From sequence record PZ452606.1: DNA of 64,000 nt. The stretch is one strand, 5' to 3'. The notes under the pieces were generated by a model. The model was not told where the DNA came from. It saw only the letters and a program-made list of their open reading frames with translations, and searched no databases. The DNA is from a phage. Position 1 is the stretch's first letter. Each line of letters begins with the position of its first letter. The position numbers and the translations under genes were made by a program. Positions 33 to 31,406 of the stretch are shown here, one piece after another.

Positions 33-2012
33 ATGACTTTATTATCTCCGGGCATTGAGCTCAAAGAAACTACGGTTCAAAGCACCGTGGTTAATAACTC
101 TACTGGTACAGCAGCTTTGGCCGGTAAATTCCAGTGGGGTCCTGCTTTTCAGATTAAACAGGTTACAAATGAAGTAGATTTAGTTAATACTTTTGGTCAA
201 CCAACAGCTGAAACTGCTGACTATTTTATGTCTGCGATGAATTTCTTACAGTACGGAAATGACTTACGAGTAGTTCGTGCTGTTGATAGAGATACCGCTA
301 AAAACTCATCTCCGATTGCTGGTAATATTGAATACACAATTTCTACCCCAGGTAGTAACTATGCAGTTGGAGATAAAATCACGGTCAAATATGTTTCAGA
401 TGATATTGAAACTGAAGGTAAAATTACTGAAGTAGACGCAGATGGAAAAATCAAGAAAATTAATATTCCTACTGCAAAAATTATCGCTAAAGCGAAAGAA
501 GTCGGTGAATATCCAACACTAGGTTCTAACTGGACTGCGGAAATTTCTTCATCTTCCTCTGGTTTAGCTGCAGTAATAACTCTTGGAAAAATTATTACTG
601 ATTCTGGTATTTTATTAGCTGAAATTGAAAATGCTGAAGCTGCTATGACAGCGGTTGACTTTCAAGCAAATCTCGAAAAATACGGAATTCCAGGAGTAGT
701 AGCTCTTTATCCAGGCGAATTAGGCGATAAAATTGAAATTGAAATCGTATCTAAAGCTGACTATGCAAAAGGAGCTTCTGCATTACTCCCAATTTATCCA
801 GGTGGTGGTACTCGTGCATCTACTGCTAAAGCAGTGTTTGGATATGGACCACAAACTGATTCACAGTACGCTATTATAGTTCGTCGTAATGATGCTATTG
901 TTCAAAGCGTTGTTCTTTCAACTAAGCGTGGTGAAAAAGATATTTACGATAGTAACATCTATATCGATGACTTTTTCGCAAAAGGTGGTTCAGAATATAT
1001 TTTTGCAACTGCACAAAACTGGCCAGAAGGCTTCTCTGGAATTTTAACTCTGTCTGGTGGATTATCATCAAATGCTGAAGTAACAGCAGGAGATTTGATG
1101 GAAGCTTGGGACTTCTTTGCTGACCGCGAATCTGTTGACGTTCAACTGTTTATTGCGGGTTCTTGTGCCGGTGAATCTTTAGAAACAGCATCTACTGTCC
1201 AAAAACACGTCGTTTCAATTGGGGATGCTCGTCAAGATTGCTTAGTATTGTGCTCACCACCACGTGAAACTGTAGTTGGAATTCCTGTAACTCGTGCTGT
1301 TGATAACTTAGTCAATTGGAGAACTGCAGCAGGTTCATACACTGATAATAACTTTAATATCAGTTCAACCTATGCAGCAATCGATGGCAACTACAAATAT
1401 CAGTATGACAAATATAATGATGTGAATCGTTGGGTTCCATTAGCAGCTGATATTGCTGGTTTATGCGCAAGAACTGATAACGTATCTCAGACTTGGATGT
1501 CTCCAGCTGGTTATAATCGTGGCCAGATTCTTAACGTTATTAAACTTGCTATTGAAACTCGCCAGGCTCAGCGCGACCGTTTATACCAAGAAGCTATCAA
1601 CCCGGTAACTGGTACAGGCGGTGATGGTTACGTATTGTATGGTGATAAAACAGCTACTTCTGTTCCTTCTCCATTTGATCGTATTAACGTTCGTCGTCTG
1701 TTTAATATGTTGAAAACGAATATCGGACGTAGTTCAAAATATCGTTTGTTCGAATTAAACAATGCGTTTACTCGTTCATCATTCCGCACAGAAACTGCCC
1801 AGTACTTACAGGGAATTAAAGCTCTCGGTGGAATTTATGAATATCGTGTAGTTTGCGATACAACAAATAACACTCCGTCAGTAATTGATAGAAATGAGTT
1901 TGTTGCAACATTCTACATCCAACCTGCGCGCAGTATAAATTATATTACTTTGAATTTCGTAGCAACTGCTACCGGTGCAGATTTCGATGAGTTAACTGGT
2001 CTTGCAGGTTAA
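33..2012 (+). CDS. 18: tail sheath protein gp18
   Basis: 659-aa ORF; length and N-terminus (MTLLSPGIELKETT...) match T4 gp18 as I recall it; AGAGG RBS upstream; followed by genes 19-24 in canonical order. Confidence 0.93.
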   Translation: MTLLSPGIELKETTVQSTVVNNSTGTAALAGKFQWGPAFQIKQVTNEVDLVNTFGQPTAETADYFMSAMNFLQYGNDLRVVRAVDRDTAKNSSPIAGNIEYTISTPGSNYAVGDKITVKYVSDDIETEGKITEVDADGKIKKINIPTAKIIAKAKEVGEYPTLGSNWTAEISSSSSGLAAVITLGKIITDSGILLAEIENAEAAMTAVDFQANLEKYGIPGVVALYPGELGDKIEIEIVSKADYAKGASALLPIYPGGGTRASTAKAVFGYGPQTDSQYAIIVRRNDAIVQSVVLSTKRGEKDIYDSNIYIDDFFAKGGSEYIFATAQNWPEGFSGILTLSGGLSSNAEVTAGDLMEAWDFFADRESVDVQLFIAGSCAGESLETASTVQKHVVSIGDARQDCLVLCSPPRETVVGIPVTRAVDNLVNWRTAAGSYTDNNFNISSTYAAIDGNYKYQYDKYNDVNRWVPLAADIAGLCARTDNVSQTWMSPAGYNRGQILNVIKLAIETRQAQRDRLYQEAINPVTGTGGDGYVLYGDKTATSVPSPFDRINVRRLFNMLKTNIGRSSKYRLFELNNAFTRSSFRTETAQYLQGIKALGGIYEYRVVCDTTNNTPSVIDRNEFVATFYIQPARSINYITLNFVATATGADFDELTGLAG

Positions 2013-2652: not shown

Positions 2653-4277
<1,625 letters not shown>

Positions 4278-4278
<1 letters not shown>

Positions 4279-4517
4279 TGGAAGGTTTAATTGAAGCTAT
4301 TAAATCAAACGACCTCGTAGCCGCTCGTAAATTATTTGCTGAAGCCATGGCTGCAAGAACGACTGATTTAATCAAAGAAGAAAAAATCGCTATCGCTCGT
4401 AATTTCTTAATCGAAGGTGAAGAACCTGAAGACGAGGATGAAGATGATGACGAAGATAGTGATGATAAAGACGACAAAAAAGACAAAGACTCTGACGAAG
4501 ACGAGGATGATGAATAA
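4278..4517 (+). CDS. 67: prohead core protein gp67 (acidic C-terminal tract)
   Basis: 79-aa ORF, stop/start overlap with gene 20 (TAATG); poly-Asp/Glu tail; position between 20 and 68 as in T4. Confidence 0.85.
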
Positions 4518-23220: not shown

Positions 23221-23273
23221 CCTCATGTTATGTCAGTAAGATTACTGTAACACAACACGAGGGACTTGTAAAC
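23221..23273 (-). repeat. 53-bp intergenic repeat, copy A (second copy at 38546-38598, 52/53 identical)
   Basis: CCTCATGTTATGTCAGTAAGA[T/C]TACTGTAACACAACACGAGGGACTTGTAAAC present at both loci immediately 5' of minus-strand genes. Confidence 0.9.
23238..23273 (-). promoter_or_regulatory. T4 early-type promoter candidate (GTTTAC -35-like, TGnTACAGT -10-like) within 53-bp repeat, copy A
   Basis: Minus strand GTTTAC-17 nt-TTACAGT followed by GAGG RBS and the alt.-3-position ORF. Confidence 0.45.
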
Positions 23274-25330
23274 TACATCTTGAACTTTTTAGACATTCCG
23301 TTGATGCTAACCAAAGAAGCCAAGATTTGAGAAACTTCGTTTTCCTCTTCTTTTGATTCTTCTACAAGGAATTGATTAAACCCAGCCATTGGACGAACTT
23401 CACCAGTTTCCATTAGATGATCGCCATCATATACCGATTCTTCTAATTGTTCAGAAGGAGGAACGATTGTGCCTTCGATTAGATACTTGTTATAAGCAGT
23501 TTCTTTCATCATGTACGTGCTTACTTTATTAATCTTCAACAAAATTCCACGCGGTAGAATAACTTCAGCTTCTGATGGAAATCCTGATAAATGACCTGGA
23601 ACGATAACTTTGATTCGTTCAGCCCCTTTAATTACCATACCTACGCTAGTTTCAGCATCTTCATTAGCATATGTAGAATGACTACCCATATGCATCAAAT
23701 CTTCTGCATCAACGGAACCTTCTCCTTCACCAGAAAATACTGCGCCGGAATCATCTAGAGCCATATAGTTTTTACCATGCTCACCGAAGATATTTGGTTT
23801 AAGCGATGTGGATACGAAGTTCTTGAAATAGAACATTTTATTTTCAATATTATGACGTAAAGTTTTAAAGGTAACTTCTTGTCCGCGATAAAGCGTAGTT
23901 CCTGGAGGAAGAACTGAACCTTTAGCAAATGCAGAATCCAACGTCTCGATGTGCTTAATAGCTCGTTCCATATATTCTTCACGGGTAGAATCTGGTTTAC
24001 CCAAGAGGAACGAGTTCATTTCAACATATGAATCTGCACAATAATCTTCAATTACATCAGACTCAGCCTGAGTTAATCCTTTTGGAGTTACTTCGGTGCT
24101 TGCGTATTCATATGCCTGAGCAGCAGATTCATTAATCAATTTATAAATGCTATTCATGACAAATTGAATAATAGCTACTTTTTCGTCTGGCGTGGCTTTA
24201 GAACCTTTAACTAAATCATTGATAATTTTCTTAATAACATCAAAGCTATTAGAAATATTAATGTCAGCTAGATCGCTCAAAATTTTATCGGTTTTATAAT
24301 CAAAAAATTCTTTATTCTTTAAATATTCTTGAGAACCTTGATGTGTTATATCGCTCTGCAGTCTGATAGACGGATCACGTAAACGTGCATGGGCCAATGC
24401 AATATGATTTCGGAAGCTTTCTAGTTCATAATCGTTAGATTTAAAACGAGAAGCACTTCTCATACCACCGATAGCTCCTTTGCCGAAGTTGGAACCAATC
24501 TGAATAACGCCAGAGTTCATTGGTCCTTCTGCTTTATATACCGGAACTTTAGATTCAAACTCTTGATATTTCTTAGCGGCGAAGCTATCGCCCTGGAGTG
24601 AGGCATCGACAGTAGAATATTGAGCTTGCGCTGCTAATCGACGACTAATTTTAGTTTTCTGAATAACAGCTTGATCAGTGCGCTTATCATTTTCTAAAGC
24701 AATAGAAGCAGCAACAGCGACAGCTTTAGGAACAGCATTACCTGTTTTAACGTCTACATAAACATCACCAACCTTTGATTCAACTTTTGTGAATAACTCA
24801 GTTGAAATAGGAGGTACACCTGGAATGTCTTCTAAATTGGCATTTTTACGGTAAACCATAATATATGCGTACTTTTTATCATAGTCCCAGATTTCCTTTA
24901 AAAGAACATATCGACCTGCTCCTTTAGTACGTACTAAACGGTCAGCAATAACTTGCATTTGACGAGCTGCGCCATTTGTTTTACTCTTTAGTACGCGGAA
25001 TAGGCATGCGTCGATTTTATACTGCTTCATTGTTTGAAGAGCAGTATCAAAAACAGCATTAATGACGCCAATTGGATTTCCACCCAAGTTTCTAAGCTTA
25101 ACCAGCGATAATTTCTCGTTGACACCTATCATTACGATATGCATCATTTTATCGCCTGGCTTAACGTTTTTATTCGTATCACCACCAGAGGTGTATGTAC
25201 AAAATCTAAATCCAGGAAGCACGCTTTCTTCGCCGGCTTGAATAGCAAAAATTTGTGGTATTTTATGCTTAGGATTTAAGTTAACAACCGGCGCCGAAGC
25301 GCCGTCAAATAATTCTGTAATAAGTTCCAT
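23273..25330 (-). CDS. Alt-like ADP-ribosyltransferase paralogue (685 aa)
   Basis: N-terminal third near-identical in pattern to the adjacent 698-aa ORF; C-terminal ART R/S/E triad candidates: YRGQ, FVSTSL, PSEAEVILPRG. Confidence 0.8.
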   Translation of the reverse strand: MELITELFDGASAPVVNLNPKHKIPQIFAIQAGEESVLPGFRFCTYTSGGDTNKNVKPGDKMMHIVMIGVNEKLSLVKLRNLGGNPIGVINAVFDTALQTMKQYKIDACLFRVLKSKTNGAARQMQVIADRLVRTKGAGRYVLLKEIWDYDKKYAYIMVYRKNANLEDIPGVPPISTELFTKVESKVGDVYVDVKTGNAVPKAVAVAASIALENDKRTDQAVIQKTKISRRLAAQAQYSTVDASLQGDSFAAKKYQEFESKVPVYKAEGPMNSGVIQIGSNFGKGAIGGMRSASRFKSNDYELESFRNHIALAHARLRDPSIRLQSDITHQGSQEYLKNKEFFDYKTDKILSDLADINISNSFDVIKKIINDLVKGSKATPDEKVAIIQFVMNSIYKLINESAAQAYEYASTEVTPKGLTQAESDVIEDYCADSYVEMNSFLLGKPDSTREEYMERAIKHIETLDSAFAKGSVLPPGTTLYRGQEVTFKTLRHNIENKMFYFKNFVSTSLKPNIFGEHGKNYMALDDSGAVFSGEGEGSVDAEDLMHMGSHSTYANEDAETSVGMVIKGAERIKVIVPGHLSGFPSEAEVILPRGILLKINKVSTYMMKETAYNKYLIEGTIVPPSEQLEESVYDGDHLMETGEVRPMAGFNQFLVEESKEEENEVSQILASLVSINGMSKKFKM

Positions 25331-25333
25331 GAT

Positions 25334-27430
25334 TTATCCTTGAACGAACTTGTAAGGCATGTTTGTAATATCTATGCAAGACGCAATAATTCCAAGAGAT
25401 GATTCTACTTTCTGTTTAACATTTGATGAAACAAATGATGCAAAGTCAACTCTGTCTTCTATTTCAATATCACCTGTCATTGCAACTACTTCGCCAGTTT
25501 CCATTAAACGGTCACCGTCATAAATTACCGATTCGGTGAGTTCTTCGGTGGTCATAACTTCAGCTTGAATGAGTTTTGTATTATTAGACGTGGTTCCGTC
25601 ATTATTAGAAGCATCAGTTATTTTATTAACTTTGACCATCAATCCGCGCGGTAGAATAACTTCGGCTTCTGTTGCTATTCCGAGACTTCCTGGATATACA
25701 ACATTAACTTTATGAGCTCCATCAATTGCCCATCCTATTTGAACTTTAACGTATTCAGGATTTTCTTTATACGCTCTTATTTCGTTTGGATTAATAGTTA
25801 TTCCTTCTTCATTTTTATCAACTGTTAATTCGTTACGAGCTTCTGGTTCTAAAAGACCAATACCAGCATGTGTAATTCCAAAACGTCCAAAAATGATAGG
25901 AGTTAAAGAAGTAGATACAAAATTTCTGAAATAGAACACTTTATTTTTAACTAACGCTTCATATATAGGAGCAGTCATACTTTGAGCACGATAAACTGTA
26001 ATGCCTTCTGGTATACGGTCACCATTTTCAAAAGCTGAATCTAAGTTATTTATAGCAGATTCAATTTCTTTTTCGCTCATTACATCGTATCGTTCTGGAT
26101 TGTAACGACCTAAAAGAAGATTATTAATGTCTGTATATCCTGAACCGCAATATTCTCTAATGCCACGCTTTTGTGATGGAGTATATTTAGAACCATCGCG
26201 GGCAATAGTAATATCAATCATTGGACCGGCACCAATTCCAGAAAAACTGTAAATCATTCGTTTGAGGAATTTAGTTTTTGCTGCGTTCCAGGAATTTTTA
26301 GTTATTTCTTCCCAGACTTCATCTGGTTGCCCTTTACGAGTTTTATTATGTTTATCAAGCCAATTATCTTTATATTCTTCAAAGAATTTATTAACAGCTG
26401 CTGCGTATTTCTCTAAACATTTTATTGAAGTAGTTGGTTCATTTTTGATTGCGTTAAAAATTACATCTTTAATTTTTTCGGAAACTTCATCAACCTCACT
26501 TTTTGAAAAGAATTTATAGTCATAGTGAAGTTCATTCGCAGTTCCTTCGGCAATAATTTTTGCTGCCTTAGTTTTAGAAGCTAATGAATTAATTCCAAGC
26601 TTCATTTCTTCTGCTTCGGGAATTAAAGGAGCGGTAGCAGGTTTATTGAAATTAGCTGCGGTAGATTCATACTTCTGGAATAATTCACTTTCAAATCTAG
26701 AAGATTCCAATGATTGACTTTGCGCAATTGCTCTACGGGAAATTTTAACTTTAACGATTACAGCTTGGTCAGAACGTTTATCATTTTCCTGCGCAATAGA
26801 TGCTGCAATTGCCTCATTTTTAGTTACTTGGGCTCCAGTATCTTTATTGATATAAACATCACCGACTTTCGATTCAACTTTAGTAAAGAGCTCGGTACTA
26901 ATTTCTGGAACTCCCGGAATGTCTTCTAGTGATACATTTTTGCGATGTATAAGAATATATGCATACTTTTTATCATAATCCCAGAGTTCCTTAAGAAGGA
27001 CGTATCTGCCACCTGAACGACTACGGATAAGTCTATCAGCAATAACTTGAATTTGTCGAGCTTGACCAGCGGTTTTAGACTTAAGAATACGAAGCATACA
27101 AGCATCAATTTTATACTGACGCATTGTTTGCATTGCAACAGTAAAAACTGAATTGATATAATTAATTGGGCTTGGACCAAGACCTTTTAATTTAGCAATT
27201 GAACCTTTAGCAGTTAATGTAAAAGGAACAATATGCATCATTTTATCGCCCATCTTTAAATCGCGATTAGTATCACCTCCAGATGTATAGGTACATAAAC
27301 GAAAGCCTGGCTGTTCAATTGCATCATCAACGTGAACTGAAAAAATTTGCGGTATTTTCTTCTTTGGATTTAAGTTTGTAATCGGAAGAGTAGTATCTTC
27401 GTCAAATAATTCTGTAATAAGTTCCATCAT
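25334..27430 (-). CDS. alt: Alt-like ADP-ribosyltransferase (698 aa; probable alt)
   Basis: Position next to gene 30; ART motifs YRAQ, FVSTSL, ATEAEVILPRG; N-terminus MMELITELFDE; minus-strand TATAAATA late promoter upstream; which paralogue corresponds to T4 alt is uncertain. Confidence 0.8.
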   Translation of the reverse strand: MMELITELFDEDTTLPITNLNPKKKIPQIFSVHVDDAIEQPGFRLCTYTSGGDTNRDLKMGDKMMHIVPFTLTAKGSIAKLKGLGPSPINYINSVFTVAMQTMRQYKIDACMLRILKSKTAGQARQIQVIADRLIRSRSGGRYVLLKELWDYDKKYAYILIHRKNVSLEDIPGVPEISTELFTKVESKVGDVYINKDTGAQVTKNEAIAASIAQENDKRSDQAVIVKVKISRRAIAQSQSLESSRFESELFQKYESTAANFNKPATAPLIPEAEEMKLGINSLASKTKAAKIIAEGTANELHYDYKFFSKSEVDEVSEKIKDVIFNAIKNEPTTSIKCLEKYAAAVNKFFEEYKDNWLDKHNKTRKGQPDEVWEEITKNSWNAAKTKFLKRMIYSFSGIGAGPMIDITIARDGSKYTPSQKRGIREYCGSGYTDINNLLLGRYNPERYDVMSEKEIESAINNLDSAFENGDRIPEGITVYRAQSMTAPIYEALVKNKVFYFRNFVSTSLTPIIFGRFGITHAGIGLLEPEARNELTVDKNEEGITINPNEIRAYKENPEYVKVQIGWAIDGAHKVNVVYPGSLGIATEAEVILPRGLMVKVNKITDASNNDGTTSNNTKLIQAEVMTTEELTESVIYDGDRLMETGEVVAMTGDIEIEDRVDFASFVSSNVKQKVESSLGIIASCIDITNMPYKFVQG

Positions 27431-29128: not shown

Positions 29129-29394
29129 TGTTCATCCTTTAGAGTTTGGTTTACAGCTCTATTATAAATCAATTCATCATTAAGCTCAGTCAAAGACCTG
29201 TGGTACGTGGTTCTAACTTTATTTCCTTGCATCCAGTGCTTGACGTAAATGAAACCTTGCTCTACACATTTTTTAAAAATTCGTTCGTCTTTTTGAGCTC
29301 GGAATTCTGGATTGCATCTAAAAAATTGATTTACGTGACCGTAATCACGTGTAGTATTACCTTCATTTTCATAAATAGTGTGAACGACAAACAT
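29125..29394 (-). CDS. hypothetical protein (30.1 position)
   Basis: 89-aa ORF, translationally coupled to gene 30. Confidence 0.55.
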   Translation of the reverse strand: MFVVHTIYENEGNTTRDYGHVNQFFRCNPEFRAQKDERIFKKCVEQGFIYVKHWMQGNKVRTTYHRSLTELNDELIYNRAVNQTLKDEQ

Positions 29395-30230
29395 TAGAAT
29401 GCTCCTTGGAAAATATTATCACCACTAGTAGGTCTATTATACAAATACTCTATGCCACCGGGTTTAATATAGTTCCATGTCTGAAACGGATGCGTCTGAT
29501 ATGGATGATATGGATTATAAGGATTAAACCCAGGAGTTCTCCAGGTAGTGTTCCAAGGAAAAGAATCGTTTTTGATCATCTTCTCAATTACATCTTTTAT
29601 AGCTTTTTCACGATCAAAACTTTCTTTAATTTCCTTCGATGGAAAAAGCTTATTCTCGACATCATTCCATGTATAAACTCGCTGTGCAGTTTTTGGAATA
29701 CTGTCACGCTCTCCTCGAGCCATCCAATAAACAGGAACATTTAATATTTCACTCGCGTGATCGCAGTGGTGAGCGAGATCGTCAATATAACAAATTACGT
29801 TATATTTTTCTTTTGCCTTTTTGAACAGCTCTTCTTTTGAAGAATCATGACTACACATCAGTACTTCTGAGAAGGCACCAGGAAAAAGAGCATTCAAATT
29901 AAATTGACGATTCAGCAGAGCGTCAATAGAATCACCCAATGCTGTAACAGCTACAAAATTATAATCTTCTTTTAATTTGTTAATTACACACAGGGCATCT
30001 TTATATGGAGACAAGTAACGAATAAAATCTGAACGATTATATTTTTCAATTAACTTGACACCAAGTTCTTCATCACAATTAAAGAGTTTACCAGGAGAAA
30101 TAAATTTCTCATCTTGGATCATTTTTAAAATATGTTCTAACGGAAGATTATATTTCTGAGCAAAATAAGGAAGGCCTGATTGCCAGCTTAAACATACTCC
30201 ATCAATATCAGTTAAAATAGTAGGCTTCAT
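29394..30230 (-). CDS. HAD-superfamily-like hydrolase candidate (30.2 position)
   Basis: 278-aa ORF; N-terminal ILTDIDGV (HAD motif I DxDG[TV]), later FVAVTAL, KAKEKY and CYIDD match HAD motifs II-IV. Confidence 0.6.
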   Translation of the reverse strand: MKPTILTDIDGVCLSWQSGLPYFAQKYNLPLEHILKMIQDEKFISPGKLFNCDEELGVKLIEKYNRSDFIRYLSPYKDALCVINKLKEDYNFVAVTALGDSIDALLNRQFNLNALFPGAFSEVLMCSHDSSKEELFKKAKEKYNVICYIDDLAHHCDHASEILNVPVYWMARGERDSIPKTAQRVYTWNDVENKLFPSKEIKESFDREKAIKDVIEKMIKNDSFPWNTTWRTPGFNPYNPYHPYQTHPFQTWNYIKPGGIEYLYNRPTSGDNIFQGAF

Positions 30231-30691
30231 AGAGAGTCTCTTAATAGGTTTAACACATCAATAAATTCAGCTTCGGTTAGTATTGTATCATCTTTTGTTA
30301 GACCACTAGCCATGCTGTGCTTCAAAACTTTTCCTTTCGAGGCTAGTAATGCATCACGAAAGCCCTTGTTTTGAATCGCTGCTTCAAAATATGCATTTGT
30401 GTATAATTCTTTCCACGCCGGGGAGTATCTTGAAAACGGAACTCCAAGCCAGAAGAGGGTCCCACGGTCCTGAGCTCTAGCATAAGACCTTCCAGCTTGT
30501 TGGGCGGCAAGCCCGGATAACCCAAATATACGACGTTGTTGTTCAACATTTTTCACCTTGCATCCTTGGAGGAATCCTTCAAGACCTCCAAATTGAATAC
30601 CATCCATAACGAAAGGCCATTGGGCGAAATTACTTAATGCACATGATGGCCACCTAAAATTACTTCTAATCTCTAACTCAGACATTTTCAA
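30227..30691 (-). CDS. NADAR/YbiA-like domain protein candidate (30.3 position)
   Basis: 154-aa ORF; LSNFAQWPFVMDGIQFGGLEGFLQGCK matches the SNFAAWP..DG....SEHYFQAQK signature of E. coli YbiA as I recall it. Confidence 0.6.
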   Translation of the reverse strand: MKMSELEIRSNFRWPSCALSNFAQWPFVMDGIQFGGLEGFLQGCKVKNVEQQRRIFGLSGLAAQQAGRSYARAQDRGTLFWLGVPFSRYSPAWKELYTNAYFEAAIQNKGFRDALLASKGKVLKHSMASGLTKDDTILTEAEFIDVLNLLRDSL

Positions 30692-30884
30692 TGCTTATAA
30701 TTTCAACATCAGCCCAATGACCATAGCAAGGAAGACGAAATTCAACTGGCCAGTTAGGGTCCTTTTCTAATATAATAGACTCAACTCGTGGTTCTTCATG
30801 TTCATCAGTATATGGATTTTTATCTGTTACTTTATATGTGACCTTAATGTACTGAATTCCAAAAATCTTATTAATTATATTCAT
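30678..30884 (-). CDS. hypothetical protein (30.4 position)
   Basis: 68-aa ORF in the coupled 30.x array. Confidence 0.5.
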   Translation of the reverse strand: MNIINKIFGIQYIKVTYKVTDKNPYTDEHEEPRVESIILEKDPNWPVEFRLPCYGHWADVEIISIENV

Positions 30885-31365: not shown

Positions 31366-31406
31366 AATAATTTCCTCAGTAAGGGGCTGAAGCCCCTCAT
31401 TTTATT

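Follow-up and report, generated by a model that had tools for sequence, protein, structure and literature searches.

An intact allele of the T-even gene 30.3 (adfN), encoding a NADAR-fold enzyme with a probable role against DarTG1, in a T4-like phage

The 64,000-nt stretch of phage DNA analysed here (sequence record PZ452606.1, hereafter the window) derives from a T4-like Tequatrovirus, with ~98% identity to phage Kha5h over 25 kb, and its genes follow the order found in T4, namely alt, alt.1, 30 (ligase), 30.1 to 30.9, rIII, and 31. All of the genes flanking 30.3 are T4 core genes. The genes considered below are the following:

23273..25330, minus strand: Alt paralog, full-length, 41% identical to T4 Alt
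25334..27430, minus strand: Alt paralog, upstream copy, full-length, 70% identical to T4 Alt
29394..30230, minus strand: gene 30.2, with a HAD-fold phosphatase- or nucleotidase-like domain (residues 1-200)
30227..30685, minus strand: gene 30.3, adfN (anti-DarT factor NADAR), 152 aa plus stop, a single-domain phage-type NADAR
30343..30549, minus strand: internal out-of-frame ORF 30.3', 68 aa here versus 75 aa annotated in T4
30678..30884, minus strand: gene 30.4, 68 aa, with a stop codon that overlaps the adfN start

An earlier note, prepared from the letters of the sequence, had singled out a 154-aa ORF at 30227-30691 as a candidate NADAR/YbiA-like enzyme. This ORF is a real gene on the minus strand, and its sequence identifies it as gene 30.3 (adfN) of T-even phages. 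Its start required correction, in that the mechanical ORF call began at a TTG (30691) to give 154 aa, whereas the annotated T4 start is the ATG at 30685, which overlaps the stop codon of the upstream gene 30.4 (ATGTCTGA) and gives a product of 152 aa. The product is identical to T4 gp30.3 at 150 of 152 positions, with Q114L and I125M as the only substitutions, and in the LZ and T2 phage alleles all 152 positions match. The A-to-T change behind Q114L also introduces a TAG into the 30.3' frame, which suggests that 30.3' is under little constraint.

Against Pfam, the window 30.3 protein matched PF08010 (Phage_30_3) over the whole model (1-138 of 138; E 2.7e-70; 235 bits, compared to a gathering cut-off of 36). 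Searched individually, the same protein produced no match to PF08719 at E <= 1 and none in PADLOC, while NCBIfam returned just a sub-threshold match (TIGR02464, riboflavin-intermediate N-glycosidase; E 0.16) and a single-sequence search of the PDB returned one spurious match (E 0.37). Since family-level and structural tests were positive, we attribute the null results from PF08719, PADLOC, and NCBIfam to the limited sensitivity of a single sequence. In an alignment of 55 diverse gp30.3 homologs (A1), 23 of these PF08010 members matched PF08719 individually, with a best E-value of 1.5e-7, so that the link to this model anticipated in the earlier note is present in the family but absent from a direct search with the window protein. 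Several of the A1 homologs also carry the JGI label 'YbiA (DUF1768 family)'. When the A1 profile was searched against all PDB sequences, the only credible match was E. coli YbiA (2b3w; E 0.0045), with LsnFakhpFvldgvecasmEGFlqslkf aligned to FSNFAAWPIKVDGKTWPTSEHYFQAQKF, exactly the motif given in the earlier note. Structure comparison identified an unambiguous NADAR fold in the 30.3 product, including the helical core and small flanking beta-hairpins of YbiA. The sequence link of the window protein to NADAR is transitive, running through family members only, and the recovery by a reader of raw sequence of a remote relationship that Pfam's NADAR model misses for this protein has value for calibration.

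The residues expected of a NADAR active site are also in place. The corresponding features within gene 30.3 are:

30557..30637, minus strand: NADAR signature, residues 17-43 (LSNFAQWPFVMDGIQFGGLEGFLQGCK), the part aligning to YbiA (profile-to-2b3w)
30578..30580, minus strand: Glu36, codon GAA, catalytic, read from the sequence; invariant in A1 and A5 and aligned to the YbiA Glu
30557..30559, minus strand: Lys43, codon AAG, catalytic, read from the sequence; at least 90% conserved in the 55 homologs and aligned to the YbiA Lys
30317..30319, minus strand: His123, codon CAC; invariant in the 55 homologs and located directly after the last beta-strand (120-122 in the model)
30230..30274, minus strand: C-terminal helix, residues 138-152 (EAEFIDVLNLLRDSL), helical over 138-151 in the predicted model

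The peptide quoted in the earlier note is therefore present, as residues 17-43 of the product, and within it L17, S18, N19, F20, F25, E36, G37, F38, and Q40 are invariant across the 55 homologs. In published structures and mutagenesis, the NADAR active site is defined by a catalytic Glu and Lys, with the last strand contributing a third, acidic residue. In T4 AdfN, Glu36 contacts the distal ribose and Lys43 coordinates phosphate, and function is impaired by E36A (PMC11825919) and by K43A (PMC11825919; PMC11543638); the counterpart pairs are E43/K50 in PnNADAR and E88/K95 in E. coli C7 NADAR. The last-strand residue is Glu in YbiA-type, Asp in DarG1-type, and His in phage NADARs (PMC11125620; PMC11543638), the His variant of phage NADARs having already been recognised (PMC11543638), and the window enzyme carries the phage-family residue in the form of His123. 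Truncation of the C-terminal helix of AdfN lowers activity, and the helix is needed for full activity (PMC11825919). The inactive RB69 allele, at 137 aa, ends ...DDTILT without this helix, whereas the 152-aa window allele retains it. With the linkage to YbiA significant through the family, the NADAR fold, and the conservation of E36, K43, and His123, the identification of a NADAR/YbiA-like enzyme proposed in the earlier note stands.

The function of gene 30.3 (adfN) as a guanine-specific DNA ADP-ribosylglycohydrolase acting against DarTG1 has been published (Mol Cell 2023; Toxins 2024; Nat Commun 2025; a 2025 transposon screen). Cihlova et al. 2024 reported that purified T4 gp30.3 removes guanine-ADPr but not thymine-ADPr, and that T4 gp30.3 does not rescue DarT1 toxicity in uninfected cells. 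Chimeras of T2 x RB69 and T4 x RB69 mapped DarTG1 resistance to the 3' end of 30.3 (PMC11825919; Nat Commun 2025), and the same study renamed the gene adfN and found that it is sufficient in trans, that E36A, K43A, and an RB69-like truncation each cause partial loss of function, that AdfN de-ADP-ribosylates DarT1-modified DNA in vitro, that it does not bind DarT1, and that its full activity is confined to T-even infections. In a 2025 transposon-screen preprint (HIDEN-SEQ), insertions in 30.3 were lost specifically under DarTG1. A 2026 paper found that the T4 enzyme, which consists of the NADAR core only, extends its activity to G-ADPr on RNA but does not act on C-ADPr. The published substrates of AdfN are guanine-ADPr on DNA and RNA only. 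As a minor discrepancy, the methods of PMC11125620 give the T4 NADAR construct as 'gp30.3; residues 1-208', versus 152 aa for the protein in both T4 and the window.

Based on these data, we place at roughly 95% the probability that the window ORF is adfN and encodes a minimal single-domain NADAR-fold ADP-ribosylglycohydrolase that counters DarTG1, an orphan antitoxin mimicking DarG1. In the proposed mechanism, the host DarT1 toxin would ADP-ribosylate guanine bases of phage DNA and thereby block replication, and AdfN would hydrolyse the N-glycosidic guanine-ADP-ribose bond, releasing ADP-ribose and restoring the base so that the phage could replicate; as an 'orphan antitoxin', AdfN would mimic DarG1 without binding DarT1. 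The window protein itself displays identity with alleles that have been characterised, a NADAR fold, the catalytic residues, and a C-terminal helix that is intact, while its enzymatic activity, guanine specificity, and DarTG1 counter-defence are predicted from experiments published for the alleles of T4 and T2, and we infer that the window phage uses adfN in the same way. The anti-DarTG role that the earlier note had raised is experimentally established for the T4 protein, to which the window product is 99% identical, and for the T2 allele, to which it is identical (PMC11825919; PMC11125620; HIDEN-SEQ preprint), and the inference made in the note was correct but already known, the window adding only another intact allele. 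AdfN is the first described phage orphan antitoxin-like enzyme that repairs DNA ADP-ribosylation inflicted by a defence system, and its function explains the DarTG1 resistance of T-even phages. The possibility that the window copy is a decayed, non-functional allele like that of RB69, prompted by its two substitutions relative to T4 and the existence of natural inactive alleles such as RB69, can be discounted almost entirely, since the product is full-length, retains the C-terminal helix together with E36, K43, and H123, and is identical to the T2 allele mapped as the DarTG1-resistance determinant, while relatives commonly have L114 and M125.

Among the known systems closest to the window enzyme, AdfN(T4)/gp30.3 (PF08010) is the same gene at the same locus, with the same length, E36, K43, H123, and C-terminal helix; the window differs from T4 by Q114L and I125M and by keeping intact a second Alt paralog, which has been lost from T4. 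In contrast with DarG1 (BC4488 family; PDB 8bat), the window enzyme has His in place of the last-strand Asp and consists of the core domain only, without the extra N-terminal elements of DarG1, and adfN is not adjacent to a DarT gene, so that neither of the two features expected of a DarG1-type enzyme, the last-strand Asp and a gene beside DarT1, is found here. Moreover, AdfN(T4) is no substitute for DarG1 in uninfected cells. A PADLOC search with the neighbours 30.1, 30.2, and 30.4 likewise found no defence-system protein. E. coli YbiA (PDB 2b3w; PF08719) is ~20% identical, carries Glu at the position of the phage His, removes C-ADPr as well, which the T4 enzyme does not, and is encoded in a LexA-controlled host operon (dinG-ybiB). 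The AdfN enzymes of Bas32 and Bas60 are, like the T4 type, phage-encoded guanine-specific NADARs that counter DarTG1, but they were acquired independently from other NADAR branches and, unlike the T4 type, work without a T-even context. Because AdfN(T4) fails to neutralise DarT1 when cells are uninfected and rescues T5 and Bas25 only weakly, 'simple DarG1 mimic' is an incomplete description of AdfN, and published work has suggested that a further T-even protein is required.

One candidate for such a protein is the product of gene 30.4. The HIDEN-SEQ supplementary table for T4 was considered over the roughly 200 rows from gene-26 to gene-rnlA and was taken to be the DarTG1 comparison from its position and its 30.3 value of -7.25 rather than from its header. 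In these rows, 30.3 has a log2FC of -7.25 (adj p 0), 30.2 and alt have values of -0.12 and -0.01, respectively, modA, modB, and nudE are unchanged, and 30.4 is depleted (log2FC -1.79, adj p 0.014), making it the only significantly depleted gene in this part of the table besides 30.3. The main text of the preprint nowhere mentions 30.4. Given that the 30.4 stop overlaps the adfN start, the two genes are probably translationally coupled, and the depletion is most simply explained by polarity or such coupling. The alternative, that AdfN is one half of a two-part counter-defence in which gp30.4 is a T-even helper rather than a victim of polarity, would fit the confinement of gp30.4 to Tevenvirinae-type phages (720 records, versus 1,511 for gp30.3) and the dependence of AdfN on T-even infection. 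A search upstream of distant gp30.3 genes found no 30.4 homologs. Weighing against a helper role, 30.4 is apparently frameshifted in one T2 record, yet T2 depends on adfN; this record is of an 'escape mutant', and an ORF for the C-terminal fragment survives. While we regard a helper role as unlikely, the 30.4 signal is a lead on why T4-type AdfN depends on T-even infection.

We also considered whether the enzyme might mainly degrade soluble ADP-ribose-derived signals or metabolite N-glycosides rather than DNA adducts, in the manner of YbiA and riboflavin metabolism. Such a role was predicted for phage NADARs by Iyer et al. 2022, and both the sub-threshold TIGR02464 match and the context-dependent activity of AdfN in vivo are compatible with it. 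However, ADPr is removed from DNA directly in vitro, the genetic phenotype is specific to DarTG1, and the phage family has His where YbiA-type enzymes have Glu, and we therefore judge a predominantly small-molecule role to be very unlikely.

The remaining proposal of the earlier note, that the NADAR and the nearby Alt ADP-ribosyltransferases form a writer/eraser pair, received no support. The two Alt genes placed by that note some 3 kb from 30.3 are indeed two full-length copies on the same strand, at distances of 2.8-7 kb. The upstream copy is just 70% identical to T4 Alt whereas its flanking genes are 97-100% identical to T4, and the Alt region is thus mosaic. The first 116 residues of the other copy (23273..25330) are 95-97% identical to T4 alt.-1 plus alt.-2, and these two small T4 ORFs are therefore what is left of a paralog still intact in the window. 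That the NADAR reverses ADP-ribosylation by the phage's own transferases, either the two Alt paralogs or ModA/ModB, in a tuning or clean-up role, would be consistent with this proximity and with the survey of phage NADARs by Iyer et al. 2022, in which those of T4-like phages are expressed early alongside ARTs, and the NADAR literature consulted reports no assay against arginine-ADP-ribosylated protein. However, the order Alt-ligase-30.x reflects shared T4-core synteny, and the gp30.3 homolog lies elsewhere in more distant phages. In the part of the HIDEN-SEQ table described above, insertion under DarTG1 is neutral for alt, alt.-1, alt.-2, modA, and modB. On a host free of defences, gene 30.3 can be dispensed with (27 of its 28 sites were hit), implying that there is no harmful self-modification in need of erasure. 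In addition, every demonstrated substrate is base-linked G-ADPr, whereas Alt, according to the T4 annotation, targets protein arginine. Alt was accordingly rejected as a functional partner of AdfN on the basis of the locus survey and these neutral alt insertions, and we hold an eraser role of this kind to be highly improbable.

With regard to transcription, a promoter scan was uninformative, returning 21 sites compared to 20.2 expected. A GC-rich hairpin at 31374..31397, terminator-like on both strands, occupies the gap between 30.7 and 30.6, and downstream of it each gene from 30.6 to alt.1 (31365 down to 27480) either overlaps the next or lies directly against it, which is consistent with one translationally coupled block.

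The HAD-like hydrolase that the earlier note had reported beside 30.3 was confirmed as gp30.2. Sequence profiles gave only sub-threshold matches, no Pfam family covers gp30.2, and the assignment came through structure, which displays the HAD Rossmannoid fold with the DxD, Thr/Ser, Lys, and DD motifs, the catalytic motifs being invariant. In a 4-sequence alignment, only the T-even sequence extends into a disordered C-terminal tail (~80 aa), in which Pro, Asn, and Tyr are abundant. Gene 30.2 is non-essential in T4, and since both 30.2 and 30.3 are near-core in Straboviridae, their genome-wide co-occurrence is uninformative. Among eight distant phages with a gp30.3 homolog, a 30.2 homolog occurs within 4 kb in three, in each case directly upstream of the ligase gene, while in the other five the NADAR gene lies among tRNA genes, by SbcCD, by a DinG-like helicase, or, without an intervening 30.2, directly upstream of the ligase. 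As a partner of AdfN or the missing T-even factor, 30.2 was rejected because its adjacency is lost in these five loci and elsewhere tracks the ligase gene, and also because its insertions are neutral under DarTG1 in the part of the HIDEN-SEQ table considered.

Several arrangements in the distant loci are worth recording. In Sinorhizobium phage phiM9 (4070..6387), a gp30.3-family NADAR gene lies just upstream of that for a DinG-like helicase, with an endonuclease V gene nearby, echoing the position of E. coli ybiA in the LexA-controlled dinG-ybiB operon. In Aeromonas phage avDM14-QBC and Ralstonia phage RSP15 (around 4000..4500 in both), the NADAR gene is situated inside a tRNA gene array, away from the ligase gene. 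Finally, Acinetobacter phage vB_AbaM_3014 carries a gene annotated as a 'putative ADP-ribose pyrophosphatase' (913..1440) ~2.5 kb upstream of its gp30.3 homolog, and the encoded enzyme could dispose of the ADP-ribose released by the NADAR.
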